The position numbers were made by a program, and so were the translations under genes. Source: an uncultured bacterium (GTDB lineage Bacteria > Planctomycetota > UBA1135 > GCA-002686595). From it: DNA of 64,000 bases. The notes beneath the pieces were generated by a model. It searched no databases. It was given only the letters and a program-made list of their open reading frames with translations, and was not told the DNA's origin. Position 1 is the first letter of the stretch. Each line of letters starts with the position of its first letter. Positions 13,776 to 64,000 of the stretch are shown piece by piece. The DNA is taken from positions 53,428 through 117,427 of the forward strand of contig CALEMP010000021.1 of assembly GCA_937910685.1 (NCBI GenBank), given 5' to 3'.

Positions 13776-13786
13776 TCAGGGCACCC

Positions 13787-35024: not shown

Positions 35025-35336
35025 ATGGGAAGACTCAGGGCCAGGACCGCCACCTCACAAGTGGATCGTGATCTCCACTCCAGGTTGGCAAAGGCCATAC
35101 AGGAGTTGGGGGCGGCACGGGACATCTGTGTGCGACTTGGTCGGGACCGGGCTCTCCCTCCCCAAGAGAAGGCCCGTGCTACAGCTACAAGGCAAACTAT
35201 CCAACAGGCGCTTGCGCTTGTGGATAGCATAGGCCACCTGTCGGGACGTTCCAATATGGACTCGGACCTTATGCCCGAAGCGGACAAGCGGCCACGCCGG
35301 GAACAACCTGAGCGCTTCAGTGGGGAGTCTAGCTGA
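35025..35336 (+). CDS. hypothetical small protein
   Basis: 103-aa ORF. The stop overlaps the portal start. Confidence 0.45.
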   Translation: MGRLRARTATSQVDRDLHSRLAKAIQELGAARDICVRLGRDRALPPQEKARATATRQTIQQALALVDSIGHLSGRSNMDSDLMPEADKRPRREQPERFSGESS

Positions 35337-37987: not shown

Positions 37988-40900
37988 GATAAGCCTGATA
38001 CTCATGAGGTTGAAGGTGACCTCGACCTGTTCCGACTGTTCACTTATGGCTCCATGATAGGTGACCCCCCACAAGCGGGCGACCTGATACGGTCGGAAGT
38101 GGGCACCCTTGAAGGACACCACATCGCGTACAACCGCATGAGTGAAAACCGGGAGTCCCTGGTGATGGGGACAGAGCCGGGAGGGAAGATCGTGGGGGTA
38201 CTTCACGAGTACCCCGTGACCGTTGCTCAAAAAGTGTTGGGATCGGTTGATCGTCGTGAGGGCTTTCGTCCTGACCGGGAAAGGGCGAAGAACAGTTACA
38301 CCCGTACCCCGGTGGTGGTCAAAACCAAGGGTGGTGAGGAAGTGTGGGCGCTGGCCTTCCTCTCCAACCCAGAGCATCCCTCGTACTTCAAGCCCCTGAG
38401 TGTGGCTCAAGCGGTCAAGCAACTCAGCGGGGACGAGGATGGTGCGAAGAAAGGGCGGCGCTACCTGCGGTCCCTGCGACGATTCATGGAGCAGTACGAC
38501 ATTCAGGATGACTACATCATGGGCATCCTGGAAGGGATCGGCTCAAAACCGGACAAGGAGGCCACGGTGAGCACCGGGGCACTGAACCGACGCCACATGG
38601 AGGCATCGAACCACCGGCGGTCCATGGCCCTGGTGAAGTGGCTCTCCGACCTGGCCCGCAAGCTGGGGGTGGGTGAGCACGTCTACGTGGTGGGGGGTGC
38701 CGTTCGGAACTTTGTCCTGAACGCCCCCATCAAGGACATCGACGTGATGATCGACTCGGTCGCCCTGCGTGGCCGGGACAGCGAGTGGTTCGCCAAGGAG
38801 ATCCTCAAGGCGGCCCCGGTGGACATCAACCTCACCACCAACAACTACGGCGTGGCCCTGCTCCATGTGAACGAGGAGTGGATCGTCGGGGGCGAAGACC
38901 TCAAGGGCGAGGACATCGAGATCGCCACCGCCCGCAAGGAGTCCTACGGGGGCGATGGCGGCAAGGGGTACAAGCCGCACCTGGTGGAACCCGCGACGGC
39001 TGCCGAGGATGTGTGCCGCCGGGAGTTCACCTTCAACTGCCTGATGTGGCGACTGCACGACCTGGCCAACGGCCCGGACAAGGCGGAGATCGTCGACCTG
39101 ACCGGGTGCGGGATCTCCGACCTGGCCGAGGGCGTCATGCGATGCCCCTCCGACCCGGACAAGACCTTCTCGGACGACCCCAGCCGCATGGTCCGGGCCA
39201 TCAAGTTCCTGGTGAAGTACGGCTTCCGCATCGACGGGGAGGTGCAAGCCTCCATCAAGCGCAACAAGGCGAAGCTGAAGAACATCCCGCCGTCGCACCT
39301 GGGCTCCATGCTCCTGGACTTCGTCCTCAAGGAGTCCACCGCGACCAAGGCCCTCACGGAGATGGACCGGCTGGGGCTGCTCGACGTCCTCAAGGAGGTC
39401 ATCCAGAAGGACAAGGGCCTGCGGAACACGCTGGCGAACCACGGGGACAGCAGCAACGTCGCCCACATGTTCGTGCTCATGGACTTCGGCCTCCCGTCAG
39501 GGAAGCAGCTGGGGTTCCTGAACCCCCGACAGGTGCAGCGGGTCCGCGACATCACCGTGGAGATGACCGCGTCCGAGGCCAAGGAGTACGTCGCCAACCT
39601 CAACCAGCCGAAGCTGGACAACCGCGCCCTCATGCAGGAGTTCGACCTCAAGGGTGCTGGGATGGGCCAGGTGAAGACGCTGGCCCGCGAGGCCATGCTC
39701 GACAACCACCTGCTCGCCTTCCACCAGGGCAAGCTCACCCAGGCGGTGCGTCGGGCACTGGGCGGGGGCCGCCGTGCGGCATCCTCGGATGTGCAGTACA
39801 TCGGGGTCGTCCTCGACCCCATGGACACGCAGAAGCTGATCCGTCGCTACGGGCAGCTGCACCCCGAACGGCACGCCCACCACATGACGGTGTGGCACTT
39901 CAGGGATTCTTCAGAGGCCCCCCTGCGCCTCCCCTGGGGCCGCACGGTCGACCTGAAGGTCAAGGCCCACCTGGCCGACGACAAGGCCCAGGTCGTGGTC
40001 GTGGACCCGCCCAGGGCGCTTCGCTCGAAGGGGCGGACATCTCACATCACGGTGTCCACCAGCAGCGGCGTCGGCCCGAAGTACAGCAACGACCTGATCC
40101 GCAAGTGGGAGGAGATCCCGGCGGAATCGACTCACCCCACGGTGAGCGGCAAGGTGGCCTGGGTGGACCTGGCGGGGAAGACGCACTTCATGGCACCCCC
40201 GGAGGGGCGTGTTGCCTCGCGGGATGACAGCGAGGGGGACCGTCGCGCACGCCTTCAGGCGGCCAAGCAGTTCCCCGCCAACCTGCTCCCGAACGTCCAC
40301 ACGGTCGTCCCCGCGAAGTACATGGACAAGGTCCCCTACTGGGACGGCATGAAGGAGATCGCGGTCTACCGCAGCGTCCCCGAGGGGATCACGGAGATCC
40401 GACCCGGCGACTGGGTGACCCTGACCAGGAGCTACGCCCGGATCCATGGTCGGGGCACCATCCTGAGCAAGAAGGTGCCCGTGGGCCACGTCTACTGGGC
40501 GGGCACGGACATGAACGAGTGGTTCTACACGCCGGTCGGATCCGGTCGGGTGGCATCGCACACCGAGGTGGTGGTTCAGGGTGGGGGCAAGGAGCGGACG
40601 TTCACCGTCCCCGACTCCTCGGTCCCTCTCCTGCTGGGCGGCCTGCCCGAGGACGCCATCGGACGTGTGGCCGCCCGCTACGCCTCCACGCTGGTCCTGG
40701 ACCATGGGGGGGTGGACACCCGGCACGATGTCCCCGACGACTCCATGCCCCTGCTCTTCAACGCGACCTTCGCGGACGCGGTGAAGGGGGACAGCGAGGT
40801 GGTGGTTGCGGTGGAGCACCTGGTCGAGCGCAAGACGGCCTCGGACGGACCTCGCTACATGCAGGGCAAGCCCCACATGGCGGTCTACAAGAAGCTCTAC

Positions 40901-43438
40901 GACTGGATGCTGACACTGGCCCGGTCGAAGCACCCTGGATCAGGCCGGGCCTACGACCGGATCCAGGTGACCCTCATCGACAACGTGGACCAGGGTGCCC
41001 GGCGGGATCGGCCCGTGGACATGGGCCATCTCAAGCGGTACCTCGCGCAGGCTGTGGAGGCCATGCAGGGGGCCGAGGACTCCAAGGATGTCCGAGTGGT
41101 CGCTGAGATGGCGGCAGTCCTGCGGACAGGACGAATGGCGAAGGTGAACCTGCCCGCGTTGGTCGCGGAGTTCCTCAAGTCCCCGGCGGGGAGCTACCCG
41201 GACCCGATGTCCTGTTCGGACACCAAGGGCCGCTGTGACGGGGTGGCTACCAGGCTCTGCGAGTTCCTGGCGGAGCGTGGGGTGCCCTGCGAGGTGTGGG
41301 AAGGTACGGGCCTGATCCCCCCTCTCGGGAAGGACGCCCACAAGGAGTGGCTGGAGTTCGCGGGCGACCAGCAGAAGTTCCTGTTCCATGTCGTTGCAAG
41401 GGTGGGGAACAAGGTCGTGGATCTGACAGGTGCCCAGTATGGGGCGGCATTTGCGACCCCATACATCAAGCCGTTCTCTGTGTTCAAAGCCCAATGGAAG
41501 AAGGTGAGGCGGTCGCCCATGAGTAAGAGTGCAGATAGGGTTGCCCTTCGCTTCTTGCGTCAAGGATCCAAGCTGGTCTGGAGGTTCAAGGGTTCACAGA
41601 ACCCCTGGGAGCTTGCAACCAGGGCCGGGATCTACGTGTCCCGAGACAAAGAGTTCAAGGCGGGTTACCAGGAGGAAGGCCAACTGGTAGCCGCCCTGTT
41701 CACAAGCGTGAGCGAAGAATGCTTCTCCTTCGATATCGTGGTGGACCCTAACCATCAACGCAAAGGTTACGGGGCCAAGCTTCTTGAGCTTGCCATCGAC
41801 GAGTATGATGAGTTGCTCGACCCCTTCCCGGACATGGTCTTCTGCATTGATGCCGTGAATCCGGTGATGGTTCGTATGCTCAAATCCAAGGGCTTTGAAG
41901 AGACCGGTAAAGAGCAGGGTCACACCCTGATGACCCGACGTGCTTCCAAATTCAAAGACAAGAAGGAGGTGCCCAAAGCAGATGGCAAGGGCACAACCAC
42001 GGTCTATGAGTACAGCGAGAAGCAAGTCCAACATCGCAATCGGGAGAAGGCCAAACGGGTTGAGAAACTCCGCAAGGGGATGTCGGATCTGCGAGCGAAG
42101 TACCGCTCCGACCTGACCAGCAAGGACGACCTCACACGCTATACGGCGTTGGTGGTGGCCCTCATTGATGAAACCTTTGAGCGGGTGGGGAACGAGGGCT
42201 CCGCTAAGGATGGACACTTCGGGGTCACCGGCTGGCGTAAGAAACACATCACCCTGAGTGGGTCGAAGGCAACCATCAAGTACGTCGGCAAGAGCGGCGT
42301 CAGTCAGAGCAAGACGGTCACCGATAAGGGCATCCTGAGTGCTTTGAAGGCTGCTCTAGAGGGCAAGGGGCCAGAGGATCCACTGTGCGAAGGCGACGAG
42401 TGCCGTGTAACTGCCGAGGACGTCAACAAGTACCTCAAAGGCTTCGGGGTGACAGCGAAGGATCTTCGCGGCTTCCACGCCAACAGCGAGATGCAGAAGC
42501 GTCTCAAGGCCATCCGGTCGGGCAAGCTCCCGGAAGACAAGAAGGAGAGGGAGGAGAAGCTCAAGGCGGAGTTCAACAAAGCCCTGGAGGAGACGGCAGC
42601 GGAAGTGGGTCATGAGGCGGCGACCCTCAAGAGCCAATACCTGGTCCCCGGTCTAGAGGACGAGTTCCTCAAGGATGGCACGGTGAGCGAGGGGTTGAAC
42701 AAGCAGGCCGGGGCGTCCCGCAGAGACCTCCTGGATGCCCTGGACCACATGAGTGACAATGCTGGTCGCACCCTACGACTGGCAGATTTCGATGTGTCCC
42801 CTGTCAAGACGGTCAAGCTGGACGACCTCTATGACTATGATGATATCGACAGCTGGGCTGAATTTAGTGAGGGGGAGTTGGCTGACCTGGACCCGGAAGA
42901 AGAACTTGAGGCTGAACTGGAAGGCTTCCGTGGTGCAAGCTGGGCACGTCGGGCTATGACCTGGGTGAAAGCCGGAACGGTGCCGCCCGTAGTGGTTGTA
43001 GAGGCCCAGGAAGCAGTGGGCATTGGGGATGGGCGAGGGCGAATCACACTCGCCCTCGGTATGGGCTGGAGTCAGGTACCAATGGTCAAGTTGACTGAGA
43101 AGACCCACAAGCAAGCCGTCATTCGCGGGGTTCTTCGCACTTTGCTTCAGAAGGCCGACCAGATCAGCGCTGTGTTCGATTGGGGCGTGGCTGAGATGAA
43201 CGGTGTGACAAGCGATCCAGATGACAAGCTTGGTGGTGGTGTCCTGGGTTACGTGTACCGGGTCGGTCGGAACTGGTTCAGCGTCAAGCCTGGGGACCGT
43301 AGCCCCTCACACAGGCAGAGCTTGAGAGATGGTGTCGCTAGCATCCGTCGTGAGGCATGGCGGTCTGTCGGGGTCAACCAGGACAGCGTGAGCAGGGTTG
43401 CTTCGCGTTACCTTCAGCAGTGGGGGTACCCAGGGTGA
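37178..43438 (+). CDS. 2086-aa multi-domain polyvalent protein (probable virion-packaged effector)
   Basis: A single uninterrupted ORF directly after the portal gene. At least eight recognisable catalytic or DNA-binding domains are listed as separate features below. Confidence 0.85.
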   Translation: MGFSRTACVIAGGTWGGKPSLLKIRDRNYTPRVKLIRDLVKGVEAVYICDVTTEWIEGLNEYGIGVVSSALLVVDDETEKKEAKKSRDGDLILEVLGQKTLKAAVRKAVANKISGHTLVSDGKEIWAVEYDPDEAPEPVARCFEKDELVVRTNHGVFLENAGYTTGADKDSSHERRQKATTTLKKVKSPEDIAPSLIHVRRKNREHPNNVIRDTDKMSTSSQMVLIPGDLEVLFYPIPGRVDFLGLEDRLPKGRKGKVKVRVFHYSDLAADKPDTHEVEGDLDLFRLFTYGSMIGDPPQAGDLIRSEVGTLEGHHIAYNRMSENRESLVMGTEPGGKIVGVLHEYPVTVAQKVLGSVDRREGFRPDRERAKNSYTRTPVVVKTKGGEEVWALAFLSNPEHPSYFKPLSVAQAVKQLSGDEDGAKKGRRYLRSLRRFMEQYDIQDDYIMGILEGIGSKPDKEATVSTGALNRRHMEASNHRRSMALVKWLSDLARKLGVGEHVYVVGGAVRNFVLNAPIKDIDVMIDSVALRGRDSEWFAKEILKAAPVDINLTTNNYGVALLHVNEEWIVGGEDLKGEDIEIATARKESYGGDGGKGYKPHLVEPATAAEDVCRREFTFNCLMWRLHDLANGPDKAEIVDLTGCGISDLAEGVMRCPSDPDKTFSDDPSRMVRAIKFLVKYGFRIDGEVQASIKRNKAKLKNIPPSHLGSMLLDFVLKESTATKALTEMDRLGLLDVLKEVIQKDKGLRNTLANHGDSSNVAHMFVLMDFGLPSGKQLGFLNPRQVQRVRDITVEMTASEAKEYVANLNQPKLDNRALMQEFDLKGAGMGQVKTLAREAMLDNHLLAFHQGKLTQAVRRALGGGRRAASSDVQYIGVVLDPMDTQKLIRRYGQLHPERHAHHMTVWHFRDSSEAPLRLPWGRTVDLKVKAHLADDKAQVVVVDPPRALRSKGRTSHITVSTSSGVGPKYSNDLIRKWEEIPAESTHPTVSGKVAWVDLAGKTHFMAPPEGRVASRDDSEGDRRARLQAAKQFPANLLPNVHTVVPAKYMDKVPYWDGMKEIAVYRSVPEGITEIRPGDWVTLTRSYARIHGRGTILSKKVPVGHVYWAGTDMNEWFYTPVGSGRVASHTEVVVQGGGKERTFTVPDSSVPLLLGGLPEDAIGRVAARYASTLVLDHGGVDTRHDVPDDSMPLLFNATFADAVKGDSEVVVAVEHLVERKTASDGPRYMQGKPHMAVYKKLYDWMLTLARSKHPGSGRAYDRIQVTLIDNVDQGARRDRPVDMGHLKRYLAQAVEAMQGAEDSKDVRVVAEMAAVLRTGRMAKVNLPALVAEFLKSPAGSYPDPMSCSDTKGRCDGVATRLCEFLAERGVPCEVWEGTGLIPPLGKDAHKEWLEFAGDQQKFLFHVVARVGNKVVDLTGAQYGAAFATPYIKPFSVFKAQWKKVRRSPMSKSADRVALRFLRQGSKLVWRFKGSQNPWELATRAGIYVSRDKEFKAGYQEEGQLVAALFTSVSEECFSFDIVVDPNHQRKGYGAKLLELAIDEYDELLDPFPDMVFCIDAVNPVMVRMLKSKGFEETGKEQGHTLMTRRASKFKDKKEVPKADGKGTTTVYEYSEKQVQHRNREKAKRVEKLRKGMSDLRAKYRSDLTSKDDLTRYTALVVALIDETFERVGNEGSAKDGHFGVTGWRKKHITLSGSKATIKYVGKSGVSQSKTVTDKGILSALKAALEGKGPEDPLCEGDECRVTAEDVNKYLKGFGVTAKDLRGFHANSEMQKRLKAIRSGKLPEDKKEREEKLKAEFNKALEETAAEVGHEAATLKSQYLVPGLEDEFLKDGTVSEGLNKQAGASRRDLLDALDHMSDNAGRTLRLADFDVSPVKTVKLDDLYDYDDIDSWAEFSEGELADLDPEEELEAELEGFRGASWARRAMTWVKAGTVPPVVVVEAQEAVGIGDGRGRITLALGMGWSQVPMVKLTEKTHKQAVIRGVLRTLLQKADQISAVFDWGVAEMNGVTSDPDDKLGGGVLGYVYRVGRNWFSVKPGDRSPSHRQSLRDGVASIRREAWRSVGVNQDSVSRVASRYLQQWGYPG
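38024..38377 (+). other. domain: gamma-glutamyl cyclotransferase / AIG2-like
   Basis: 'LFTYGSMIGD' (YGS[LM] motif), 'GTLEGHHIAYN', 'VDRREGF...SYTRTPVVVKT'. Confidence 0.65.
38630..39757 (+). other. domain: CCA-adding enzyme / poly(A) polymerase-family nucleotidyltransferase
   Basis: 'VYVVGGAVRNFVLNAPIKDIDVMI' (GGxVR..DxD), 'CRREFTFNCLMW' (RRDFTIN-like), 'DDPSRMVRAIKFLVKYGF' (EDPLRxLRAxRF-like). Confidence 0.8.
39785..40132 (+). other. domain: 2H phosphoesterase (CPDase/LigT/CNPase-like)
   Basis: Two H-x-T-x motifs, 'HHMTVWHF' and 'TSHITVSTSSGVGPKYSNDLI', 55 aa apart. Confidence 0.7.
41195..41497 (+). other. domain: transglutaminase-like / papain-fold Cys-His-Asp core
   Basis: 'GRCDGVATRLCEFLAERGVPCEVWEGTG' ... 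'FLFHVVARVGNKVVDLTGAQYG'. Confidence 0.5.
41585..41947 (+). other. domain: GNAT N-acetyltransferase
   Basis: 'VAALFTSVSEECFSFDIVVDPNHQRKGYGAKLLELAIDEY...AVNPVMVRMLKSKGFEE'. Confidence 0.65.
42125..42667 (+). other. domain: type IB topoisomerase catalytic domain
   Basis: 'ALIDETFERVGNEGSAKDGHFGVTGWRKKHITL', 'IKYVGKSGVSQ', 'VTAKDLRGFHAN', 'EVGHEAATLKSQYLVP'. This is an Arg-Lys-Arg-His-Tyr set in canonical order. Confidence 0.7.
42725..43102 (+). other. domain: ParB/sulfiredoxin-fold (ParB N-terminal-like)
   Basis: 'VKLDDLYDYD...', 'AVGIGDGRGRITLALGMGWSQVPMVKL'. Arg sits where most family members have His. Confidence 0.5.
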
Positions 43439-46684: not shown

Positions 46685-47332
46685 ATGGGTTCAGGTTCAG
46701 CTCGTCAATCCTATGTCGATTACCAACAGAGAGCTTCGGAGTTCTCTGTTGGTGACTCCGTGTACTACTCGATGGATGGTCAAAACCACATCGGGGGTGT
46801 CACAGCCGTGTACCCGGCCATAGGTATGATTGACGTGGAGTACCCTGATGGTAGTGTTCGTCTTCCGGTAGAGGACGTGACCCGCTACGAGTCCAAGGAC
46901 GTTATCCCTCCCGCACTTGAGCACGACAACGTACCGGGTGGGGCAGGGACCGTTCGGGTGCCCGGTGGACCCGTTCCCAGGGCAGCACGGGCCGAACTTG
47001 AAAGGCATGCCAACCGGGTAGCCCAAGCCTGGGTGAAGAAGTCACTCTATTGGGCAGGCAAGGACCGCAAGTACAAGGCAACCTCAGCCGAGATCGCAAG
47101 TGGGAGGTTCTCCTGTCCCAAGTGCAAGAATCACGTGGATGAGGATGAGCCTGTGTACCTTCGCCCCGCCAACTACAAGCGGAGCGAGGGTGTGAGTGAG
47201 CGCCTACTGGGTTGCCCAGAGTGCCTGTTCCTCATCAAGCGTTGTGACATCATCGGGCATCCAGAGTTTGTAGACCCGGATGCCCCCATGGATCCGTTGG
47301 CCCGACACCGTGTAGCTTCGGGGGTGCCCTGA
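46685..47332 (+). CDS. hypothetical protein with zinc-ribbon Cys pairs
   Basis: ATG 46685. 'CPKC...CPEC' and 'NRVAQAWVKK'. Confidence 0.5.
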   Translation: MGSGSARQSYVDYQQRASEFSVGDSVYYSMDGQNHIGGVTAVYPAIGMIDVEYPDGSVRLPVEDVTRYESKDVIPPALEHDNVPGGAGTVRVPGGPVPRAARAELERHANRVAQAWVKKSLYWAGKDRKYKATSAEIASGRFSCPKCKNHVDEDEPVYLRPANYKRSEGVSERLLGCPECLFLIKRCDIIGHPEFVDPDAPMDPLARHRVASGVP

Positions 47333-50265
47333 TGGCTTTCATGAAGTATGCACGGGCTTCCGTGGTGCACCCCCACATCGGGAAGACCGAATGGGCGAAG
47401 GTTCGGGTAGCTGCCAAGACCTCCAACGGAGATCTGAATGACAACCTGGTTGCCAGGGCGTCTGAGCTGTTAGGTAAGCCCTTCAACCCCAAGGACTTCT
47501 TGCTGACCCATGCGACCATCGTCGCTTCGGTCGACACGTTTGAGCCCACAGGGATCAAGACGGGTTCGGTCCTTGAAGGTGGCTTCCGGGTGAACAGGAA
47601 GTACGGTAACTTCCGAATCAAGGCGTCCTGCGACAAGTTCATAAACAACAACTTGGATTCCTGGGACCGGGACGTGCTCCTCAAGAGCTACCGCACCTTC
47701 GTCGGGGGTCATAACTTCTGCTTTGCACCGGGGACGCAGGTGCGTTTGGCAGATGGGTCATACAAACCCATTGAGGATGTGATTGTGGGGGATCTGGTGC
47801 TCACCCATATGGGTAGAGCCCGTAAGGTCACCAGGTTGTTCAAGCGTCTCTATGAGGGGGACATTCAGGCTGTTCAGATTGGGCGATTCAAGGATCCAAT
47901 TCTGGCGACAGGCAATCACCCCTTCCGAGCGTTGAGTGTTGAGGCTCCTCCCCTAGGTCGGTACAAGTCCGGGAAAGCGAAGTCGGCGCTACGTTACCGG
48001 AAAGATCAGATAGTCAAAGCTCTCCGTGGAGAGCAGGCAACCTTTGGCTCTAGCACCCCTGCTTTGCGGAAGGTCGTGGATGCCATGGGGTCTGGCCCAA
48101 TGACGAGGGCCGAAGTGTCCTCTTTGTTGGGTTGCGGGGATGCCGGTAGCTTGCTCAGGCAATACCCCAGGTATTTCGGTGTCAGGCCACTAGCCCAAGA
48201 TGAGAGGCCCAAGTTGCGGGGGCGTTCCCGACCCCGCAAGATGTGGTTCCTCAAAGACACTGCTCCTGAGATCCCCTCGCAAGAGGTGAGGATCATCCCT
48301 GAGTGGGTCAATGCAGGAGACCTGGGCACCACATCCTGGGTTCGGGGGCCGAATTGCAATACTGGATCAGTATCCTCTCTGAAGCGAGCCTCACTACTGG
48401 GCTACTATGCCGCAGAGGGGTGTCTCGCATGGGAGGGTAATGAGAACCCGGTTGCTGTTATTTTGAGTTTCGGTCCTCACGAACGAACTCTTGCCGAAGA
48501 TGCTCAAAAGTTGGCGGAGGACGTGTGGCCTGAAGCTACCGTAAAGATCCATCCGACGCAGACGTCTCTGCGGACAACAATCCGATCAAAGGCTGCAGCT
48601 GCCTGGTTCCAGAAGATGTGTGGTCATCTGGCCCACCTCAAGACGTTGCACCCTTCCGTACACGACTGGGACAGGGAAACTCAGCTTCAGTTGTTGGCTG
48701 CTTGGATGACTGGGGATGGGAACCTACACAAAGGTACCCTCCGACTCCGTGGAGCTTCTGTCTCACGGAAGCTGTCTGACCAGATGCAGTTGGTGGCCGA
48801 GCAGTGTGGTTTGAAGTCCTTCACGGTATTTGAGAAGCGCAACATCGGTGAGGTTGGCAGCCAAGTGCAGATGGTGGTCGGTGGAGAACCCCGAATTTTC
48901 GATGTGATCTCCCGCCACCACTGTTGGACGACCTACGTGTCTCGTTCGGATTGTACCGAAATTGTGTCTCGGTCGAAGCGGTGGGGGCCAGTTGTACCGG
49001 TATCCAACAAGAGCCAGGATCTGGCTTGGTGGGAGGGGGCTAGGCTATATCAGGTCACCAGCAACACAAGCATCCCCTATTCAGGTTATGTCCACAACAT
49101 CGAGGTCGAGGAGGATCACTCCTACGTTGTCGACCACGGGGTCTGTGTCCATAACTGCGAGCATGTTCAGGTAGAAGAACTGTCCAAGGGTCGCATCATA
49201 GACTCTGTAGCCCGCGACATTGGTGACAGTGTTTACACGGACATTCTCATTGCTACCGACCGGAAGCACAGAGATCTCGTCACCGCCATTGTGAATGGCA
49301 AGATGAGCACCCTGTCCATGGGGTGCAGCGTTGACGGCACTCAATGTACGAAGTGCGGGCACTGGGCTGCGGATGAGACAGAGATGTGCAACTGCGTTAA
49401 ATACGCAAAGGGCAACATCTTCTTCGACGAGAACGGCAACAAGCATCGGGTCGCGGAGCTTTGTGGTCACAAGAGCATAGGCCCGACTGGAGGGGTTCAG
49501 TTCATTGAGGCTAGTTGGGTTGCAACCCCGGCTTTCACGGGTGCGGTGCTCAGGAACATCCTGGAGCCTACCGAAAGTCAGTTTCGGCAGGTTCAGGCTA
49601 TCCTGAACACCCCACCACCTCAGTGGTCATCTGACACTCAGATGAAGGCTGCTTTCCTCACGGACTCCAGCTCTGCTTTTGGCTTCTCCTCTGGAAATGA
49701 CCTCCTGGCTGAGTCCAGTGATTTCTTTGCTGGGTGGCAGGATTCCGAAGAGCCTGCGGAAGATGCTGAGGCAAAACCCGCAGAGGAGCCTAACCCCTTC
49801 AAGGATATTGAAGAGGAGATGGTCACCTTCGTGTCCGACCGGGTGAAGAAGCGTCTGCAAGAGCAGATGAAGGGTGACGAAGCCGAGAAGGTTCTCAACC
49901 CTGAGACCCCAACCTCGACTAACGAGACTCTCGTCAAGGAAGGGTCAATTCTTCGCACTGCAACGGATGTCCTCATCCGTACGGCGACAACCAGAGCAGC
50001 CCTCGTGGATGGCATTGCTCAGTTGGCGCAGGCTGGTGGTATCAACATCCCTATCCGGGTCTATCGGGTAGCGGTGAAGATGGGATCTGCGGACTTTGCA
50101 GATCCCACTCGTTTTCAGGCTTGTCTAGCTTCACTGGGTCAGCCCTCTTCTGCTGAGATTCGGGTACTCCGTAAGCTTGGCAAGCTCATCGCACATTGGG
50201 AACGCCAGACCCAAGGTGCGAGTCATACTTTTCAATCTGGTAGTCGCCACAAGGAGACGCAATGA
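47332..50265 (+). CDS. intein-containing protein; extein resembles a T4 gp21-type (assemblin-fold) prohead protease with a long acidic C-terminal extension
   Basis: Spliced text: 'YRTFVGGHNF-CEHVQVEELSKGRIIDS...VYTDILIATDRKHRDLVTAIVNGKMSTLSMGCSV...VQFIEASWVATPAFTGAVL'. Compare gp21 '..GELNHP..VYGRARV..IRAGWIPGVSSRG..VDAVWGPSAPDAWV'. It lies between the portal and the scaffold/capsid genes. The protease call is tentative. Confidence 0.45.
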   Translation: MAFMKYARASVVHPHIGKTEWAKVRVAAKTSNGDLNDNLVARASELLGKPFNPKDFLLTHATIVASVDTFEPTGIKTGSVLEGGFRVNRKYGNFRIKASCDKFINNNLDSWDRDVLLKSYRTFVGGHNFCFAPGTQVRLADGSYKPIEDVIVGDLVLTHMGRARKVTRLFKRLYEGDIQAVQIGRFKDPILATGNHPFRALSVEAPPLGRYKSGKAKSALRYRKDQIVKALRGEQATFGSSTPALRKVVDAMGSGPMTRAEVSSLLGCGDAGSLLRQYPRYFGVRPLAQDERPKLRGRSRPRKMWFLKDTAPEIPSQEVRIIPEWVNAGDLGTTSWVRGPNCNTGSVSSLKRASLLGYYAAEGCLAWEGNENPVAVILSFGPHERTLAEDAQKLAEDVWPEATVKIHPTQTSLRTTIRSKAAAAWFQKMCGHLAHLKTLHPSVHDWDRETQLQLLAAWMTGDGNLHKGTLRLRGASVSRKLSDQMQLVAEQCGLKSFTVFEKRNIGEVGSQVQMVVGGEPRIFDVISRHHCWTTYVSRSDCTEIVSRSKRWGPVVPVSNKSQDLAWWEGARLYQVTSNTSIPYSGYVHNIEVEEDHSYVVDHGVCVHNCEHVQVEELSKGRIIDSVARDIGDSVYTDILIATDRKHRDLVTAIVNGKMSTLSMGCSVDGTQCTKCGHWAADETEMCNCVKYAKGNIFFDENGNKHRVAELCGHKSIGPTGGVQFIEASWVATPAFTGAVLRNILEPTESQFRQVQAILNTPPPQWSSDTQMKAAFLTDSSSAFGFSSGNDLLAESSDFFAGWQDSEEPAEDAEAKPAEEPNPFKDIEEEMVTFVSDRVKKRLQEQMKGDEAEKVLNPETPTSTNETLVKEGSILRTATDVLIRTATTRAALVDGIAQLAQAGGINIPIRVYRVAVKMGSADFADPTRFQACLASLGQPSSAEIRVLRKLGKLIAHWERQTQGASHTFQSGSRHKETQ
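47719..49155 (+). mobile_element. intein (479 aa) with LAGLIDADG homing-endonuclease domain
   Basis: aa 130-608. Starts 'CFAPGTQVRLADG' with block B 'TGNHPF'. LAGLIDADG motifs 'LLGYYAAEGCL' and 'LLAAWMTGDGNL'. Ends 'HGVCVHN' with the +1 Cys (49156-49158). Confidence 0.85.
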
Positions 50266-52587: not shown

Positions 52588-53463
52588 ATGAACAACGTCA
52601 CGAACGCGGTCAAGCAGAAGATCATCGGAGAGTACGTCAAGACCCCCCAGGGTCGCGCCAAGCTCGCCGCTTCCATGACCCAGCCGCTCCGTACGCGGCG
52701 AGACTACGCCGCCGTTGGCCGCAAGACCTTCTTGGTTGAGCAGCTCCCGGACGGTGCCCTTCCGATCTACGACAAGGATCCCGATGTGACGGCCTACGTG
52801 GTTGGTGAGGAGGGTCAGAACATCCTGGCCATCACCAAGCCCAGGCGCGTCATCTTCCCCCTCTTTGAGATCGCGTCCAACCCCGAGATCCCGCTCACGC
52901 AGATCAAGGAGCGACGGTTCGACCTCATCGAGCGCAGTCAGGATCTGGGCCGTGCTCAGATTCAGGCTGCAGAGGACGAGCGTGTCTTCGCGGTTCTCGA
53001 TTCAGTGGCGACCTCTGGCTTCGACAGCCTTCCGGGTCAGTTGAACCCTGACATCCCGGTCATCGCCCCCATTTCGGGTGCGGTCATCGCGGATGCCTTT
53101 GCGCTCATTGAGCGGCACGACCTCCGGGTCGCCCGCATCTACATGAACGCACGGGACTACGCGGATATCCGCAAGTTCGGGCGCGACATCCTCGACATCG
53201 AGTCCCAGGCCACCCTGCTCAAGACCGGACTCCAGGGCGTCATCTACGGCGCTCAGGTGGTCACGAGCCGACTGGTCCCCGTGGGCACGGTCTACCTGGC
53301 CTGTGAGCCCGAAATGTTCGGACGTATCCCCGTACGCACCGAGCTGACCGTCTTGTCCGCAGATGATCCCCGACGTCGTATGATCGGGTTCTCGATCTTC
53401 GAGAACCTCGGCATCGGCGCATACAACCCTCGCGGACTTGCACGACTCACTGTTACCCGGTAA
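52588..53463 (+). CDS. putative major capsid protein (HK97/encapsulin-like size class)
   Basis: 291 aa. Strong GC3 bias. Preceded by scaffold-like and decoration-like genes and followed by two hairpins/terminators. 'RRDYAAVGRKTFLVEQLPDGALPIYDKD' resembles small HK97-fold capsid/encapsulin N-termini. Confidence 0.6.
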   Translation: MNNVTNAVKQKIIGEYVKTPQGRAKLAASMTQPLRTRRDYAAVGRKTFLVEQLPDGALPIYDKDPDVTAYVVGEEGQNILAITKPRRVIFPLFEIASNPEIPLTQIKERRFDLIERSQDLGRAQIQAAEDERVFAVLDSVATSGFDSLPGQLNPDIPVIAPISGAVIADAFALIERHDLRVARIYMNARDYADIRKFGRDILDIESQATLLKTGLQGVIYGAQVVTSRLVPVGTVYLACEPEMFGRIPVRTELTVLSADDPRRRMIGFSIFENLGIGAYNPRGLARLTVTR

Positions 53464-53604: not shown

Positions 53605-55725
53605 ATGAAAGCCGTCCCTTGTCCGGTCTCGCCTGAAGAACTTCGCTACCTCGTCCACGACGAGAAACTCACCGACAAAGACATTGCCACTAAGTTGGGT
53701 GGCACCATTAAGCGGGTGCAGGCGTGGCGGCGTCAATTTGGGATTGAAGCCCTGCCACGGTGGAAGCGCAACGAGGTGGCCCCGATTGAAGGCTCCCTGC
53801 GGTCCCTGTTGGTTGGCTCCATGTTGGGGGACGGTCGCATCGTCAGGCAAAAGACGGCCTCGTACTACATGGAGAGCCACTGTGGGGCACAGCGAGCCTA
53901 CCTGGAGTGGAAGGCAGCCTTGTGGGCAGGGTGGGAGCACACGATTAATGAGGTACCTGACAAGCGTGGTTACACGCAGGCACGTCTCCGCACCAGGGCG
54001 CATGGCTCACTGAACCCATGGCAGGAGATGTTCTATGGAGACCATAAGCGGGGGTGGAAGCGCCTGCTCCCGAAGGTGGTGGACATGGTGGACGAACTCG
54101 CACTGGCTGTCTGGTACATGGACGATGGACACGCAGGGTGGTGGCCCGGTATCTCCTTCGGCATGGGTGGGTCAAGTTGGGAAGTGGCTTTGGCCATCTT
54201 CGATAAGTTCGATCTCAACCCTCGCTGGCAGCTTCACAAGGGCAAGACGGGCACCTTCCATTTGGAGCGAGAGGATACGGCGGAACGGTTCCTTGAGCTT
54301 ATCCGTCCTCACGTCCCTGTGTGCATGGCTGCCAAATTGGGGCCTTTCGGGTTCCAGGGTCCACACTATCAGGTGCGTCAACGGGTGACTGAGGAGGTTC
54401 TTCGGGACGGGGCCGCAAAGGGCATCCCCATTGCTCAAATGGGGCGGGAACTAGGGGTCGGTGCGTCCACTGTCCGTCGCAGGCTTCGTTCACTGGGGAT
54501 TGACTACACTCCTCCCAAGGGACGCCCCACAAAGGCTACCCCTTGGCTTGGTGACACCCAACCACTGGTCCGTGAACGATCCCTTCTACTGGATGGGGAG
54601 GCTGACAGGATGCACACCATGCTTCAGGGTGGTCTAACTGGGCAGGAGGTGGCTGACCTCTATGGTGTCCACAGGACAACGGTGTACCGAAGGCTTCGGG
54701 GACACCCCCCACTCAAGACTGGTCCCCGGACTAGTCTCACAAAGGAAGTAGCTACCATCCTCCTGAAGAGCAGGTACCCTGACACCTCCTTGTGGAAAGG
54801 CTTGGACCCGGACAGTCAGGAGGCTTGGGTTCAGGATGTCCTGGGTGTCCTTCAACAGGTGAAGTTCCCATACCCGGAGCAAGTCTCAGATGCTGTGAGG
54901 GACAAGACCCACCAGGGTCTTGTCGCCAAGGATACCACCTTGGGTCACTCTTCTATGGGCTTGAAGCTTTGCTACTCCTTCTTCCCCAACCGCTACCGGG
55001 CTAGATACAGGGGGAGGCAATCGGCTTTTGAAGCATGGCACGATGCAGAGGCATTGAGGCGGGCTGTTCTATGGCAGTTTCGCGTTGGTGACCCGGTAAC
55101 GCCTGCCAGGGTTCTAAAAGCCGTGTGTGCCAACGCCCGCACTCCAACCATCTTCAGACCCACCGTAGCAGCAGCCTTGTACAGGAGGTACTGCAAGCCT
55201 GGGGACACCGTTTGGGATCCATGTGCAGGTTTCGGGGGTCGCTTGTTGGGGGCGGTGGTTGCTGGGGTTCACTATATTGGGACGGATGTAGCCCCGGAGA
55301 CCGTCGAGGGCAACATACGGCTGGCAGAGTGGTTAGGTGCTCCGGTGGATGTTCATTTGTCACCTGCGGAGTCTTTCAAACCCCCCCAGGTTCAAATGGT
55401 GATGACCTCACCACCCTACTTCCACCAGGAACAGTATGCCGGTGGGGACCAGTCCTGGTCAGTTTTCGACACCTTCCAAAGTTGGCAGGAGGGGTTCCTG
55501 ACTCCGATGATCCAACGTGGTGCGGAGGCTCTCACGCAGGGTGGTCATTGGGTGATGAACATCGCGGACGTGTCGTACAAGAGGGCGACCTATCCGTTGG
55601 TAGAGTCAGCCAGGGTGGCTTTGAAGGAAGCGGGGTTGGTTGAGGTGGAGACTTTGGCGATGCCTCTTTCCAACCTGAATCGTCGGTCTAAAGGCGAGCC
55701 GCTATTGGTGTGGCGGAAGAAGTGA
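53605..55725 (+). CDS. LAGLIDADG homing endonuclease fused to HTH domains and an SPPY-type DNA (N6-A/N4-C) methyltransferase
   Basis: LAGLIDADG motifs 'LLVGSMLGDGRI' and 'LAVWYMDDGHA' (about nt 53791-54339). HTH-like 'IAQMGRELGVGASTVRRRLRSLG' and 'GQEVADLYGVHRTTVYRRLRG'. MTase motif I 'VWDPCAGFGGRLLGA' and motif IV 'VMTSPPYF' (about nt 55102-55704). Confidence 0.75.
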   Translation: MKAVPCPVSPEELRYLVHDEKLTDKDIATKLGGTIKRVQAWRRQFGIEALPRWKRNEVAPIEGSLRSLLVGSMLGDGRIVRQKTASYYMESHCGAQRAYLEWKAALWAGWEHTINEVPDKRGYTQARLRTRAHGSLNPWQEMFYGDHKRGWKRLLPKVVDMVDELALAVWYMDDGHAGWWPGISFGMGGSSWEVALAIFDKFDLNPRWQLHKGKTGTFHLEREDTAERFLELIRPHVPVCMAAKLGPFGFQGPHYQVRQRVTEEVLRDGAAKGIPIAQMGRELGVGASTVRRRLRSLGIDYTPPKGRPTKATPWLGDTQPLVRERSLLLDGEADRMHTMLQGGLTGQEVADLYGVHRTTVYRRLRGHPPLKTGPRTSLTKEVATILLKSRYPDTSLWKGLDPDSQEAWVQDVLGVLQQVKFPYPEQVSDAVRDKTHQGLVAKDTTLGHSSMGLKLCYSFFPNRYRARYRGRQSAFEAWHDAEALRRAVLWQFRVGDPVTPARVLKAVCANARTPTIFRPTVAAALYRRYCKPGDTVWDPCAGFGGRLLGAVVAGVHYIGTDVAPETVEGNIRLAEWLGAPVDVHLSPAESFKPPQVQMVMTSPPYFHQEQYAGGDQSWSVFDTFQSWQEGFLTPMIQRGAEALTQGGHWVMNIADVSYKRATYPLVESARVALKEAGLVEVETLAMPLSNLNRRSKGEPLLVWRKK

Positions 55726-60430: not shown

Positions 60431-60844
60431 GTGCAGAAGACAGCAAGCAGTCAAGCAGCCTGGGCACTCATCATGGAGGGTGTCACTCAGGCCCGCCTTG
60501 AATCCCATCGCCTCCGACATTTGGTTAACCGCACCCTGTCCCTGGTGGAGTCCTCCAAACAGAAGGAACACCTCTATCAGGTAGCCGGAGACGTGATTGT
60601 TGGTTGTCCTTCCAGGCTTGACGGTCTTGATCTTGCCCTGGATCGAACCGCACTCGCCCTTGCCAAGATGGGGGAAACCTACCTTGAGGCACGGCTTCCT
60701 TTCAGCGAGAAACAGCTCGTTGAAGATGCCGTGGACGCAGCATTTGGTGGTGGTATGACCCGTGAGTCCGTCGTAGATCGATTGGCTCGCAGGTGGCTTC
60801 ACAAGCGGGCAGGCAACTTGGAACACCTCAGTCGACGACGGTGA
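60431..60844 (+). CDS. hypothetical protein
   Basis: GTG start after GGAGG. 137 aa. 'DRLARRWLHK' near the C-terminus. Confidence 0.5.
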   Translation: MQKTASSQAAWALIMEGVTQARLESHRLRHLVNRTLSLVESSKQKEHLYQVAGDVIVGCPSRLDGLDLALDRTALALAKMGETYLEARLPFSEKQLVEDAVDAAFGGGMTRESVVDRLARRWLHKRAGNLEHLSRRR

Positions 60845-60850
60845 CCACCC

Positions 60851-63800
60851 GTGAGTGATCGATTCTCAGACCTGAAGCCTCAACTCGGCTGGCCCGGTGG
60901 TGTTTGCCACACGGTTCAGCGTATCGAGGACAAGGTTCGCAGTCCGCAACTGCGAGAGAAGCTTGTCGACAAGGTCGAGGATGGGGATAAGCTCACCAAC
61001 CCGGAGGCCCAGTCTGTCTACAGGTTGGAAGTTGAGAAGGGCACCAAAGCCAAACTCATTCAGACCATCCGCATTGTCCCACATGCCCAATACCGGATGG
61101 ACCAGAGATCCATAACGGTCCTTGACCTCCGACTCTCCCTGGGTGAGTTCGTCACGGCATTCTACAATGCCAAGAGCCAAGGCGACTATCAGTTCAAGGA
61201 CTGGGAAGAGGCTCTCAAACGTGGGGAACCTATCCGATGGGTTTCTTCGGCCTCTACTGGTCGACTGGTCGTGGTGTTCGCTTCCCAGGGACAGGGTGCA
61301 GTCAATATCATCAGCACCTTCTGGGATGGGGAGCCAGACCCACGCCCCCAGGATTGTGAAGTTCCACGTCAAGCAGGATATCGCGGTGACCCACAGGGCT
61401 ATCGGACCTTCGTAAAAGACCCTCACCCTCAGAAGTCAGACACCGATTCGGGAGCTTATAAGCTTCAGGGCCTACCTGCCCCGTGGAGCCGTTCTAAGCC
61501 GGTAACGAGCCCGACTACCTTCAACGGCCCAGGACCGTCAGGAACGGCTCCTGGTGGCCGTAGTGTCCACAAGGACATGGCTCGCACCAAAGGGGTGCCC
61601 GGTCAGAAACATCCTGACACTCCTGCACGACGCACCCCTGTTCGTCGTCCTGGTCTGGAAGCCTCAGATGAGGTTTTCTCCGACGAGGAGCTTGAAGGCA
61701 TCCTTGCAGAGATGTTCAAGATCAGTGGGATGTACCCACCTGCCTACCCGACGGGGGCAAAGCGTCAGAGGGCTCAAAGGGGTCAGGCCAAGAGGTACTT
61801 CAGGAAGCAGTATCGTCGTACACGTGGCAAATCCCTGATGAGGGCCAAGCGACGTTACAAGCGGTTGAAGAACAACGGCAGGTTCAGGGCTGACCGTAAA
61901 CGCCGTCGAAAGTCACCAGAGCGCTTCACACGTAAACCCGGTGGTGGTGCCCTGAGTGTAGCTGATCGTAGCAAGAAGTACCGGGAGAAGCAGAAGCGAC
62001 AAGCCTCAGCACTCTTGAGCCCCATCCCCTTCGTGTTCATGCCCACTGAGGAGGAGGGCGAAGTTCGCTCCGTGTCCCCGGATGGGATGGTGACCTTCAC
62101 CTTGGCAGGACGCTTTGAGCAACTCCCCTTCGACACCTTCATGGATGAAGCATTCATCTACGACGAAGCCGACCTGGAGGAGTTCTTTGCCTACCTGGAC
62201 GATCTGGTTGGCTTCGACCTCGATGGGGCAATGGATGCTCTTGAGGAAGGTGAAGGTGAAGAAGACGACGAGGACGACAATGACCCGTACTTTGATGCCT
62301 GGAATGAGGAGGGCATTGGTAAGGTCGCCATCAGCGTACAGTTCAGGGCACGCCCCAAGAAGCGTCAGCGTCGGCAGCGGGGTCAAGCCAAGGTCAAGCA
62401 GAAACAGTACTACCGCAAGAACAAGGCACGGGCGAAGTTGCGATCCCGGATGAGATACAAGCGGGTCAAGACCAACCCCGCTTTCAAGCGTCAGCAGAAG
62501 CACCGCAGGCGAAACAAGAACCTCTTCAAACGTCGTAACGCTCAAGTCCTGACCGTCCCTGAAATTGCTTTCGTCATCGGACGGACCCTGGATCTAGGAA
62601 TCGTCCATTCTGTCAGTCCCATGACTGGTTTGGTGACCTATCATCGTCGTTACGAATCCGGGTTGACCGACCGTTTTGAGTCCATGGCTGTTGCCCGCTT
62701 CCTTTACAGTGCCGTCTTTCTGACTGATGAGGACACGGACGCATTCTTTGAGCTGGTGGATGCCGAGCTTGACGATGAGGTTTTCCGCGAGGTGGATGCA
62801 GAAGCCTTGCGGGGTGGTGCGGACCTGGTTGGGATCGATTGTGATGATCCGGCTTTTCAGGCTCAGTGTGATACTCTGGTGGGGCATCACGACCTTGAAG
62901 CTATGACCCCTACGGAACTCGACCTGATAGACTCCCGACTCATCACCCGGTTTACCTATGGGACGGTCGACGATCTGCCTCATGATGATGAGATTCGGGA
63001 GGAGGAAGAGGCAGACCCTTACCTGCTTGACCCGACGGATGACGACCTCTTCTATGGCAAGGTCTGGCTTGAAGAAGAATACGAGAACGTGAGGTCAGCT
63101 TCCTACGACCCTGCGTCCTGGTACTACAGTGGGGAACCCGGACTGACACTCCAAACGATCATGGAGCGTTGGCAGGAGAACAGCCCCCGTCAGAAGTTGC
63201 TGGATGATGCCCAGCCCATATTTTTGACCGTGCGAGAGCTATGGCCCTTGCGGGAGTTCACCTGGACCAGGGACAAGGCACGGAATGGGTTCGCTCGCGT
63301 GCAGGGCAAGAACATCTGGTTGCCTGGGCCTGAGAAGTGGGATGTCCTCAAGGAGAACCTTAGAGAGTCAGGATGGGATGCCGACGAGCCCTTGTACCTG
63401 GAGATTGGTTCTGAGGGCGGGATCAAAGTAGGGGAGGGGAACCACCGACTTGCTTTGGCTAAGGAGCTGGGCCTGAGCAAGATCCCCGTGCAGATCTACT
63501 ACAGGACGGGCAAGGTCACTAAGAGCCCCATGCCCTCAAGAGATCCCATTGAGGAGGTGTCCCAAAGAGCGGTCACCAAGGCCATTGATCCCGTGAAACT
63601 CCAGGAGAAGCTCTCACCAGAGGCAGAGCAGGATCTCCAGGATTTGCTCAAGCTCCTCAAGTTCGGATTCTTCTATGAGAAACGTCCCCCGGAGATGGAC
63701 CCTGAGAATGTGTACGACCGTGCTCAGGACCGCAAGACTCATCCCGGTAGGGATCCTCGTCGTCCTTCGGAAGCACCCAACAACAATGGTGTAGTGGAAC

Positions 63801-64000
63801 GATCCAACCCAGGGTCCAGGGTCTTGCCCGGTGAGGGTGGACATGTGGACATGGGGCGTTGGAAGGTTGCCACCCTGATCCGTGACATCCAGAATGGTTG
63901 CGGTTCGGATCTTCTGAAGCGCTCCAAGAACTTGACTGTAAAGATCAGACGGGTCGACACGAAGAATGCGATGTGGCACTTCGCGGTGCCAGGTTCCAAG
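60851..64000 (+). CDS. 5' part (1050 codons, no stop in window) of a very large multi-domain protein; second polyvalent-type protein
   Basis: Not in the supplied ORF track. I translated frame 2 from GTG 60851 to nt 64000 by hand and found no stop codon. It contains a DUF4258-like domain, a duplicated Arg/Lys-rich module and a ParB-like domain. Confidence 0.8.
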   Translation, partial: MSDRFSDLKPQLGWPGGVCHTVQRIEDKVRSPQLREKLVDKVEDGDKLTNPEAQSVYRLEVEKGTKAKLIQTIRIVPHAQYRMDQRSITVLDLRLSLGEFVTAFYNAKSQGDYQFKDWEEALKRGEPIRWVSSASTGRLVVVFASQGQGAVNIISTFWDGEPDPRPQDCEVPRQAGYRGDPQGYRTFVKDPHPQKSDTDSGAYKLQGLPAPWSRSKPVTSPTTFNGPGPSGTAPGGRSVHKDMARTKGVPGQKHPDTPARRTPVRRPGLEASDEVFSDEELEGILAEMFKISGMYPPAYPTGAKRQRAQRGQAKRYFRKQYRRTRGKSLMRAKRRYKRLKNNGRFRADRKRRRKSPERFTRKPGGGALSVADRSKKYREKQKRQASALLSPIPFVFMPTEEEGEVRSVSPDGMVTFTLAGRFEQLPFDTFMDEAFIYDEADLEEFFAYLDDLVGFDLDGAMDALEEGEGEEDDEDDNDPYFDAWNEEGIGKVAISVQFRARPKKRQRRQRGQAKVKQKQYYRKNKARAKLRSRMRYKRVKTNPAFKRQQKHRRRNKNLFKRRNAQVLTVPEIAFVIGRTLDLGIVHSVSPMTGLVTYHRRYESGLTDRFESMAVARFLYSAVFLTDEDTDAFFELVDAELDDEVFREVDAEALRGGADLVGIDCDDPAFQAQCDTLVGHHDLEAMTPTELDLIDSRLITRFTYGTVDDLPHDDEIREEEEADPYLLDPTDDDLFYGKVWLEEEYENVRSASYDPASWYYSGEPGLTLQTIMERWQENSPRQKLLDDAQPIFLTVRELWPLREFTWTRDKARNGFARVQGKNIWLPGPEKWDVLKENLRESGWDADEPLYLEIGSEGGIKVGEGNHRLALAKELGLSKIPVQIYYRTGKVTKSPMPSRDPIEEVSQRAVTKAIDPVKLQEKLSPEAEQDLQDLLKLLKFGFFYEKRPPEMDPENVYDRAQDRKTHPGRDPRRPSEAPNNNGVVERSNPGSRVLPGEGGHVDMGRWKVATLIRDIQNGCGSDLLKRSKNLTVKIRRVDTKNAMWHFAVPGSK
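61028..61330 (+). other. domain: DUF4258-like (putative RelE-superfamily-like RNase toxin domain)
   Basis: 'IVPHAQYRMDQRSITVLDLRLSLGE...GRLVVVFASQGQGAVNIISTFW' fits H..RM..R.I....V...L ... vvv ... iiT(v/f)(y/w). Confidence 0.45.
61757..61918 (+). repeat. basic-arm repeat copy 1
   Basis: 'AKRQRAQRGQAKRYFRKQYRRTRGKSLMRAKRRYKRLKNNGRFRADRKRRRK'. Confidence 0.85.
62345..62539 (+). repeat. basic-arm repeat copy 2
   Basis: 'RPKKRQRRQRGQAKVKQKQYYRKNKARAKLRSRMRYKRVKTNPAFKRQQKHRRRNKNLFKRRN'. It aligns with copy 1 (KRQR.QRGQAK...YRK...R.RYKR.K.N..F....K.RR). Confidence 0.85.
63233..63505 (+). other. domain: ParB/sulfiredoxin-fold
   Basis: 'LTVRELWPLREF...', 'LYLEIGSEGGIKVGEGNHRLALAKELGLSKIPVQIYY' (canonical G.GNHR..A...G...IPV). 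Confidence 0.65.

Follow-up and report, generated by a model that had tools for sequence, protein, structure and literature searches.

A SWIM-domain protein with exchangeable RNase-like and ParB/Srx-fold modules, encoded among the structural genes of an uncultured jumbo phage, is a candidate capsid-packaged effector carrier

The stretch of DNA analysed here (the window) comprises 64,000 nucleotides of contig CALEMP010000021.1 and is part of the genome of an uncultured jumbo phage; its genes all lie on the + strand. At its far end a reading frame opens with a GTG codon at 60851 and is still open at the last base, 64000, raising the question of what this frame encodes and what its product does for the phage. 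Our findings lead us to propose, with a probability of about one in two, that it is a late gene of the structural module encoding a polyvalent-type, capsid-packaged effector carrier of ~1186 amino acids (aa). Proteins of the polyvalent type, known chiefly from surveys of cultured phages and plasmids, are regarded as the weapons with which a phage first acts in a newly infected cell. The scaffold of the carrier consists of a Pro/Gly linker, a ~80-aa basic arm with a charge-matching acidic domain (this unit being present once or twice), FYEKRPP and NPGS motifs, a SWIM module and an RVAxRY(L) tail; in the window phage it bears two cargo modules, the one N-terminal and RNase-like (DUF4258/BECR), the other of ParB/Srx fold and inserted ahead of FYEKRPP. 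The gene, this architecture, the assignments at fold or family level, the synteny, the shuffling of modules and the retention of putative catalytic residues are established by the analysis that follows.

The frame was missing from the list of open reading frames (ORFs) for the sole reason that it runs off the window. Translation of 60851-64000 on the + strand gives 1050 sense codons up to the window end, just as the first-pass annotation had read it, with no stop overlooked; from base composition, a frame of this length would be open by chance with a probability of ~4e-18. On its 5' side the frame is closed by a TGA at 60842-60844 and cannot start before 60845, the first start codon being the GTG at 60851; orthologues start at the equivalent residue (Met/Val). 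Extension past the window was possible through another locus, L001, which is 99% identical to the window and differs from it over the ORF by 6 substitutions (5 at codon position 3) and one in-frame indel of 6 nucleotides (nt); the ORF therefore stops 134 codons past the window end, with a product of ~1186 aa that is large, but not the giant it had been called. The window holds the 5' 1050 of its ~1186 codons, the remainder being taken from L001 10001-13555. A near-identical protein, P0001 (1184 aa), is encoded on contigs of 125 kb and 230 kb.

Comparison with a 68%-identical orthologue in locus L006 gives the + frame a ratio of nonsynonymous to synonymous substitution rates (dN/dS) of 0.15 over 854 codons, which indicates purifying selection and, together with the module assignments, bears out the earlier view of a real multi-domain gene. 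Over the same spans, three minus-strand ORFs have ratios of nonsynonymous to synonymous proportions (pN/pS) of 1.26-1.43 against L006, and the minus-strand ORF 61855-62157 has 3 stops there. By these measures the four alignable minus-strand ORFs behave as antisense shadows, as had been supposed of five; the fifth, 63190-63480, lies inside the ParB-like insert that L006 lacks, so that no alignment is possible and the tests cover the other four. All the segments picked out in the first-pass annotation (HAQYRMDQR...IISTFW, the Pro/Gly linker, the two basic arms with their acidic domains, and GEGNHRLALAKELGLSKIPV) sit where they had been placed. Scans for Rfam families, tRNAs and promoters or terminators returned nothing above background.

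The constant core of the protein, as judged from its relatives, is the C-terminal SWIM zinc-finger module, to which the DUF4258-like and ParB-like modules are added as optional cargo. Only the first third of this module (48 residues, aa 1003-1050, 63857-64000, +) lies in the window. It is preceded by a conserved linker (aa 938-1002, 63662-63856, +) with FFYEKRPPEMDP at 63668-63703 and NPGSRVLP at 63806-63829, corresponding to the family motifs FFYEKRPPxMDP and NPGSRVxP. Both the CxC-x41-CxH signature (CSC-x41-CKH) and the C-terminal RVAERYL tag fall beyond the window, the protein ending in ...AERVAERYLQSRRYRNA. With most of the module outside the window, the first reading of the window missed the conserved core. 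In P0001, the SWIM model PF04434 scores 23.9 bits against a cut-off of 19.6, and C1075, C1077, C1118 and H1120 are conserved in 29 relatives. As in other SWIM zinc fingers, the CxC...CxH is preceded by a beta-rich segment; unlike in these, it encloses a long, strongly conserved 41-residue spacer (PFWQWQGPEHWAK..YLYG...), and it is carried by structural-module proteins of phages, in which it stands at the C-terminus, and not by SNF2 ATPases or transposases.

A profile of the SWIM module matches 795 representative metagenomic clusters (50% identity) at E<=1e-3, and 284 at E<=1e-30. Cargo was counted over the best 148 of the 795 clusters: at least one basic arm is present in 92, and a DUF4258-like head in 36 (N-terminal in 35), while the ParB-like module (P0118) and a PAP2 domain each occur in a single cluster, the remainder having no recognisable domain. 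In addition, P0007 carries an HExxH-containing insert at a second hot spot, and the homologue in phage LR745208.1 is a minimal form of 521 aa (linker, one arm, one domain and SWIM) with neither cargo. The family is entirely metagenomic and its annotation is limited to the marginal SWIM match; a literature search found no description of it.

Between cargo and core lies a charged region with no counterpart in the Pfam, NCBIfam and PDB sequence searches, in which whole protein and segments alike left the arms and small domains unmatched. The Pro/Gly-rich linker (aa 173-296, 61367-61738, +) contains the family-invariant NxPGxSG...HKD..RTKGxPG at 61523-61603. It is followed by basic arm 1 (aa 297-383, 61739-61999, +; 43% K+R, net charge +33, isoelectric point 12), small domain A with its acidic tail (aa 384-496, 62000-62338, +; about -29), basic arm 2 (aa 497-568, 62339-62554, +; 44% K+R, +32) and small domain B with its acidic linker (aa 569-746, 62555-63088, +; about -36), so that each arm is paired with an acidic segment of similar opposite charge. 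The arms match each other in phmmer, domain B is a paralogue of domain A, and the units aa 297-496 and 497-746 are paralogous; by sequence, basic arm and small domain have thus been truly duplicated as one unit within the protein, in agreement with the two copies described before. Shorter family members have a single unit. A match of phrog_723 ('ParB-like partition protein') to aa 437-525 was discarded as a low-complexity acidic match with no significant stretch.

The N-terminal module (aa 1-172) joins a helical sub-domain (aa 1-72, 60851-61066, +), recognised by its conservation (DLxPxLGWPGGxCHxVxRIE...) and predicted helices at 18-28, 32-43 and 50-54, to a DUF4258/BECR-like core (aa 73-172, 61067-61366, +) that it always accompanies. 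The core is delineated by PF14076 (DUF4258) matches in the family, invariant residues and weak Foldseek matches. Modelled by AlphaFold2 (AF2) with 29 relatives, the module reaches a mean predicted confidence (pLDDT) of 93.6 and shows three helices, a hairpin, a helix at 77-85, a two-helix insertion at aa 90-124 and three strands (128-131, 139-147 and 150-158). PF14076 is matched by 26 of the 29 relatives (best E 1.8e-6), several alignments covering the full 71-position model; the relatives looked at in detail score 13-23 bits, below the gathering threshold of 25 bits. Six residues (His78, Gln80, Arg82, Met83, Asp84 and Arg86) do not vary across the 29 divergent copies, and position 155 holds Thr in 23 of them and Ser in the other 6; in the window protein, His78 lies in the HAQYRMDQR helix (61082-61108, +) and Ser155 in the last strand, IISTFW (61307-61324, +). 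In this regard, a His in the first helix and a Ser/Thr in the last strand form the active-site layout of PBECR/colicin-D-like and phage BECR RNases (PMC5512222), and DUF4258 has been placed in the Colicin-like branch of BECR (2026 preprint, 10.64898/2026.08.28.747851). The module is thus best described as a divergent DUF4258/BECR-like one, a relationship supported at the level of the family. It shares with DUF4258, which overlaps Ntox49, the N-terminal helix with the invariant His and the last strand with Ser/Thr, and differs from it in its mostly sub-threshold scores, the two-helix insertion and the obligatory 72-aa sub-domain.

Two further observations concern this module. Cys19 (in GGxCH) and Cys169 (after DPxP) are nearly invariant and flank it, and could form a disulfide or a metal site. 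A T4-lysozyme-like reading of aa 12-134 had been raised by a phmmer match to 7rgr 'Artificial protein L056' (E 0.0014), which we take to be a designed lysozyme, and was rejected: the family profile scores worse (E 0.09), AF2 predicts beta strands, and no lysozyme appears in Foldseek.

The DUF4258-like module is not confined to the SWIM carrier. It occurs alone (P0036), fused to the conserved 137-aa protein encoded upstream of the carrier (P0037, P0038), and as part of P0028 and P0030-33. These proteins share 44-59% identity with segments of a 2086-aa polyvalent protein of the window, and in them the DUF4258-like module co-occurs with topoisomerase IB (TopoIB), nucleotidyltransferase, superoxide dismutase (SOD) and zincin-like segments. 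Its presence in both the SWIM carrier and the polyvalent relatives therefore indicates that one effector-like module travels between two carriers, both encoded within the head module. The 'polyvalent-type' label of the first-pass annotation is consistent with this recurrence and with the position of the gene in the head/structural block.

The second cargo (aa 747-937, 63089-63661, +) is absent from the closest orthologue, P0002; it recurs as a protein by itself in 41 homologues (137-284 aa), in none of which a Pfam domain was matched. KVGEGNHR(LA) is invariant across the 42 ParB-like sequences; in the window protein the motif, with His865 and Arg866, lies within 63425-63490. The AF2 model of the insert has a pLDDT of 89.3, and all its top-50 Foldseek matches in the PDB belong to the ParB/Srx fold (ParB, KorB, Noc, sulfiredoxin, SerK, SbnI and PadC; probability 0.5-1.0). 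The only profile-to-PDB match aligns KVGEGNHR with DGVHR of SbnI, the conserved Arg of the GxxR nucleotide-binding motif being present. Searches against Pfam, NCBIfam and ParBc gave no match even at E<=10. The 'canonical ParB/Srx-like domain' of the first-pass annotation is accordingly kept as regards the predicted fold and given up as regards a canonical ParB: ParBc (PF02195) is not matched, and GEGNHR stands in place of the GERRxRA box. Nor did a scan against Pfam or PHROGs, which took in the 34 larger ORFs of the window and L001 and not the full window, bring up a ParA-type partner. The DGxHR-type motif of the insert presumably resembles the Srx/SerK/nuclease branch rather than partition ParB. 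Like the DGxHR-type members (sulfiredoxin, SerK/SbnI and Osa/DndB-like nucleases), the insert has the predicted fold and a Gly-x-His-Arg motif at a strand-helix turn; unlike ParB/Srx members, it has no sequence-model match, lacks the helix-turn-helix (HTH) or dimerisation domains of partition ParB, and carries extra N-terminal WYY...REYTWTR elements that are invariant in the clade. In P0118 (aa 104-285), a ParB/Srx-like module has been inserted independently at another site, between linker and basic arm.

The modules share a short peptide, R[VIL]AxR[YFHW], which occurs 27 times in the first 80 proteins retrieved, where shuffling gives an expectation of 0.45 and a maximum of 3 in 200 shuffles (~60-fold). 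Across all 228 proteins it occurs 106 times, 58 of them at 2-14 residues from the C-terminus and 11 within the first 45 residues, and most of the internal copies examined stand at module junctions: P0032 has one directly on either side of its DUF4258-like module, P0037 one where the two parts are fused, and P0003 one at the exact site at which the window protein has its ParB insert. Solo ParB-like proteins have it at their very start, and in P0001 RVAERYL starts at aa 1170. In the window the strict motif has five matches, all on the + strand: three in the 2086-aa ORF (starting at 40664, 41537 and 43394), between domain blocks and 8 residues from the end, one at the end of the 137-aa ORF (60779) and one in a 107-aa ORF at 23520. 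A relaxed pattern gives seven matches, again all on the + strand, with two extra in the small ORFs 25041-25442 and 34722-35021; no match was found in the reading frames of the capsid, portal, terminase and protease genes. This distribution suggests that RVAxRY(L) may be a module delimiter, serving as a capsid-targeting peptide, a protease site or both.

Immediately upstream of the carrier gene lies an ORF for a conserved helical protein of 137 aa (60431-60844, +) that ends in the tag just described, here as DRLARRWL, and is the syntenic partner of the carrier. The order 137-aa ORF, carrier gene, FmdB-type zinc-ribbon gene is kept in five independent loci (L001, L002, L003, L004 and L006). The zinc-ribbon gene, which in L001 lies at 13548-13949, just past the window end (TIGR02605, 48.8 bits), overlaps the carrier stop by 1-8 nt in four of the loci and follows it after a 12-nt gap in L004, an arrangement that suggests translational coupling and a functional pair. 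In L006 (8870-9997), the 137-aa homologue has a 240-aa extension right after the tag. In the window, the 137-aa ORF and the carrier ORF share a frame and are separated by the TGA and two codons, and a fused version exists in P0037 and P0038, so we considered whether both could be one product formed by read-through of the TGA. This is very improbable: by chance alone one pair of genes in three would share a frame, orthologues of the carrier begin at the same Met/Val, in L002 and L003 the genes overlap or differ in frame, and in L004 they are separated by another gene. On the arrangement in these three loci the read-through product was rejected.

The wider surroundings are those of a jumbo phage with a replication block at 385-22000 (RNR, RecD-like helicase, UvsX and clamp loader), followed by the genes for the large terminase TerL (32836-34770, +), the portal (35336-37129, +) and, directly after the portal, the 2086-aa polyvalent protein (37178-43438, +), with ChaC, PolyA_pol-type nucleotidyltransferase, tRNA-ligase CPD/2H, GNAT and topoisomerase IB domains. 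This last protein has a possible ParB-like stretch at aa 1936-1978 (weak, BLASTP only, E 0.11); no paralogues of the three modules of the carrier were found in the window outside the carrier ORF. Further downstream are the prohead protease (47332-50265, +; phrog_18299 match at aa 610-739), whose gene appears to be interrupted by an intein (Hint and LAGLIDADG_3 matches, aa 130-429), and the major head protein (52588-53463, +; phrog_2522, 3.8e-47). The carrier gene lies ~7 kb downstream of the latter, within the head/structural block. The ORF directly downstream of the major head protein gene (53605-55725, 706 aa) brings together LAGLIDADG/HNH homing-endonuclease, HTH and DNA-methyltransferase-like matches and probably represents a mobile element that has settled in the head module; its site in L006 is occupied by a 311-aa LAGLIDADG gene. 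By portal, the nearest database phages are LR745208.1 (62% identity) and Tunturiibacter phage Tunturi_5 (36%) and, distantly, Bacillus phage G.

These features can be accommodated in a model in which the SWIM end, the tag or both direct the protein into the prohead. There the arms would bind the packaged DNA, the acidic domains perhaps masking them until then, and at infection the protein would leave the capsid with the DNA and probably be delivered into the host, where the RNase-like head would cut host or defence RNA and the ParB/Srx module would act as a nucleoside triphosphate-dependent enzyme on DNA or on nucleotides. Packaging, ejection and all the catalytic activities, and with them the injected effector suggested in the first-pass annotation, are proposed by analogy with polyvalent proteins, in which PBECR and ParB domains are found beside virion genes (PMC5512222). 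Several points weigh against this model. A Pfam scan of the carrier returned neither of the hub domains of the polyvalent proteins described so far (MuF and zincin MPTase). The DUF4258-like segment called in the first-pass annotation stands at the level of the family, through the 26 matching relatives, His78 and Ser/Thr155, whereas the window copy itself has no PF14076 match at E<=10, and Pfam, NCBIfam and PDB sequence searches with the whole protein or the N-module segment likewise left the module unmatched. DUF4258 has no demonstrated activity, and its target is listed as unknown (PMC11980606). The top Foldseek matches of the module (BrnT, RelE, HigB, ParE and CdiA-CT) are not significant (E 0.35-2, TM <= 0.4), and a search against viral predicted structures gave one marginal, uninformative match, A0A7R7J3H6 (E 2.8e-3). 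For the ParB-like insert the Foldseek E-values are modest (3e-3 to 0.1), and the predicted structure assigns it to the ParB/Srx fold, not to a branch and hence not to a chemistry. On the whole, the three domain calls (DUF4258-like, ParB/Srx and duplicated arm unit) are supported, weakly so for the window copy. A further adverse point is the distant SWIM protein at the syntenic place in Tunturi_5 (gp336), which is annotated as a 'tail protein'.

This annotation bears on the possibility that the carrier is a structural or DNA-condensing virion protein devoid of any effector role, in which the arms would neutralise DNA or the SWIM module would anchor neck or tail, and the cargo would consist of inactive binding domains. 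Such an account, which we consider somewhat unlikely, draws on the 111 of the 148 best family members that have only arms and SWIM and no recognisable enzyme domain, on two weak matches of the SWIM part (phrog_1722 'tail protein', E 0.018, and gp336, which is encoded two genes after the major head protein), and on the precedent of Mu MuF, which carries an inactive PBECR (PMC5512222). The 'tail protein' labels are, however, automatic annotations with E-values of 0.02-0.6, and the invariance of His78, Arg82, Asp84, Arg86 and Ser/Thr155 in 29 copies and of KVGEGNHR in 42 argues for retained active sites. Moreover, the cargo recurs on a different carrier together with the clear enzymes TopoIB, nucleotidyltransferase and SOD.

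It is also conceivable, if quite doubtful, that the protein acts late in the cytoplasm and is not packaged at all, either on replicating or packaging phage DNA or, through a toxin/inhibitor pair formed by its DUF4258-like head and the 137-aa protein, in shutting off the host or fending off co-infecting phages. The association of SWIM and ParB domains with DNA suits the former role. For the latter speak the conserved small ORF directly upstream and its fusion to the DUF4258-like module in P0037 and P0038, and the fact that DUF4258 is found among toxins of RelE/ParE-type toxin-antitoxin (TA) systems, in which an antitoxin-then-toxin order and antitoxin-toxin fusions are known (PMC11980606). Nevertheless, the 137-aa ORF is equally conserved upstream of homologues without the DUF4258-like head (LR745208.1), no ParA-type partner came up among the 34 larger ORFs scanned, and the gene lies among the head/structural genes, not in the replication block. 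The capsid-packaged carrier is the explanation that we retain.

In comparison with known systems, the carrier resembles the polyvalent proteins (Iyer, Burroughs, Anand, de Souza, Aravind 2017, PMC5512222) in that several unrelated effector-type domains are united in one large polypeptide, here a BECR-type RNase-like and a ParB/Srx domain; in being encoded among the virion genes of a portal-terminase phage, preceded on its strand by the genes for TerL, portal, protease and major head protein; and in the shuffling of domains among orthologues and the existence of solo versions of the same domains. Combinations of PBECR and ParB beside virion genes are a described polyvalent theme, as in the H. 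pylori prophage jhp1044 and P1 DdrB (PMC5512222). The carrier differs in having no MuF, zincin MPTase or other hub domain (the hubs include ArdC, ART and SNF2), and in its constant part of SWIM and arm/acidic repeats, which is not described in such a role in that survey, where SWIM is mentioned only alongside SWI2/SNF2 ATPases. As regards links to the hubs through the domain network, the relatives show the HExxH insert of P0007 and, in P0028 and P0030-33, the co-occurrence of the DUF4258-like module with TopoIB, nucleotidyltransferase, SOD and zincin-like segments. The RNase-like module of the carrier matches DUF4258, no PBECR-named family being among those returned for the 29 members, and its ParB module matches no model. 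In contrast to DUF4258 toxins of TA systems, the module is fused into a virion-module protein instead of standing in a two-gene TA pair. By the Pfam thresholds, the carrier is a SWIM-domain protein and is not a member of DUF4258 or ParBc. What deserves attention here is the organisation into carrier and tag and how large the family without annotation is, the gene itself being of the sort expected in a jumbo phage; a scaffold of SWIM, arm/acidic repeats and tag is not described in the polyvalent-protein surveys consulted.

A broader reading of these observations, tentative and rather unlikely in our estimation, is that a large clade of uncultured jumbo phages would load its cargo by a system not described before, made up of the SWIM-ended arm scaffold and the RVAxRY(L) tag. 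Every module destined for the capsid would be marked by the tag, which would serve for targeting, as a cleavage site of the prohead protease, or in both ways; DUF4258-like RNase, ParB/Srx, TopoIB, nucleotidyltransferase, PAP2 and zincin modules would be swapped between polyvalent and SWIM carriers; and the charge-matched acidic domains would keep the DNA-binding arms masked until DNA is packaged.

Together, our results reveal a family of 795 clusters built on a constant scaffold unlike those described, on which effector modules are visibly exchanged. If packaging holds true, this family would offer a tractable carrier and tag system for the loading and delivery of proteins by jumbo phages, a set of candidate anti-defence RNases and ParB-type enzymes, and a testable biological role for DUF4258, a domain without a known activity.

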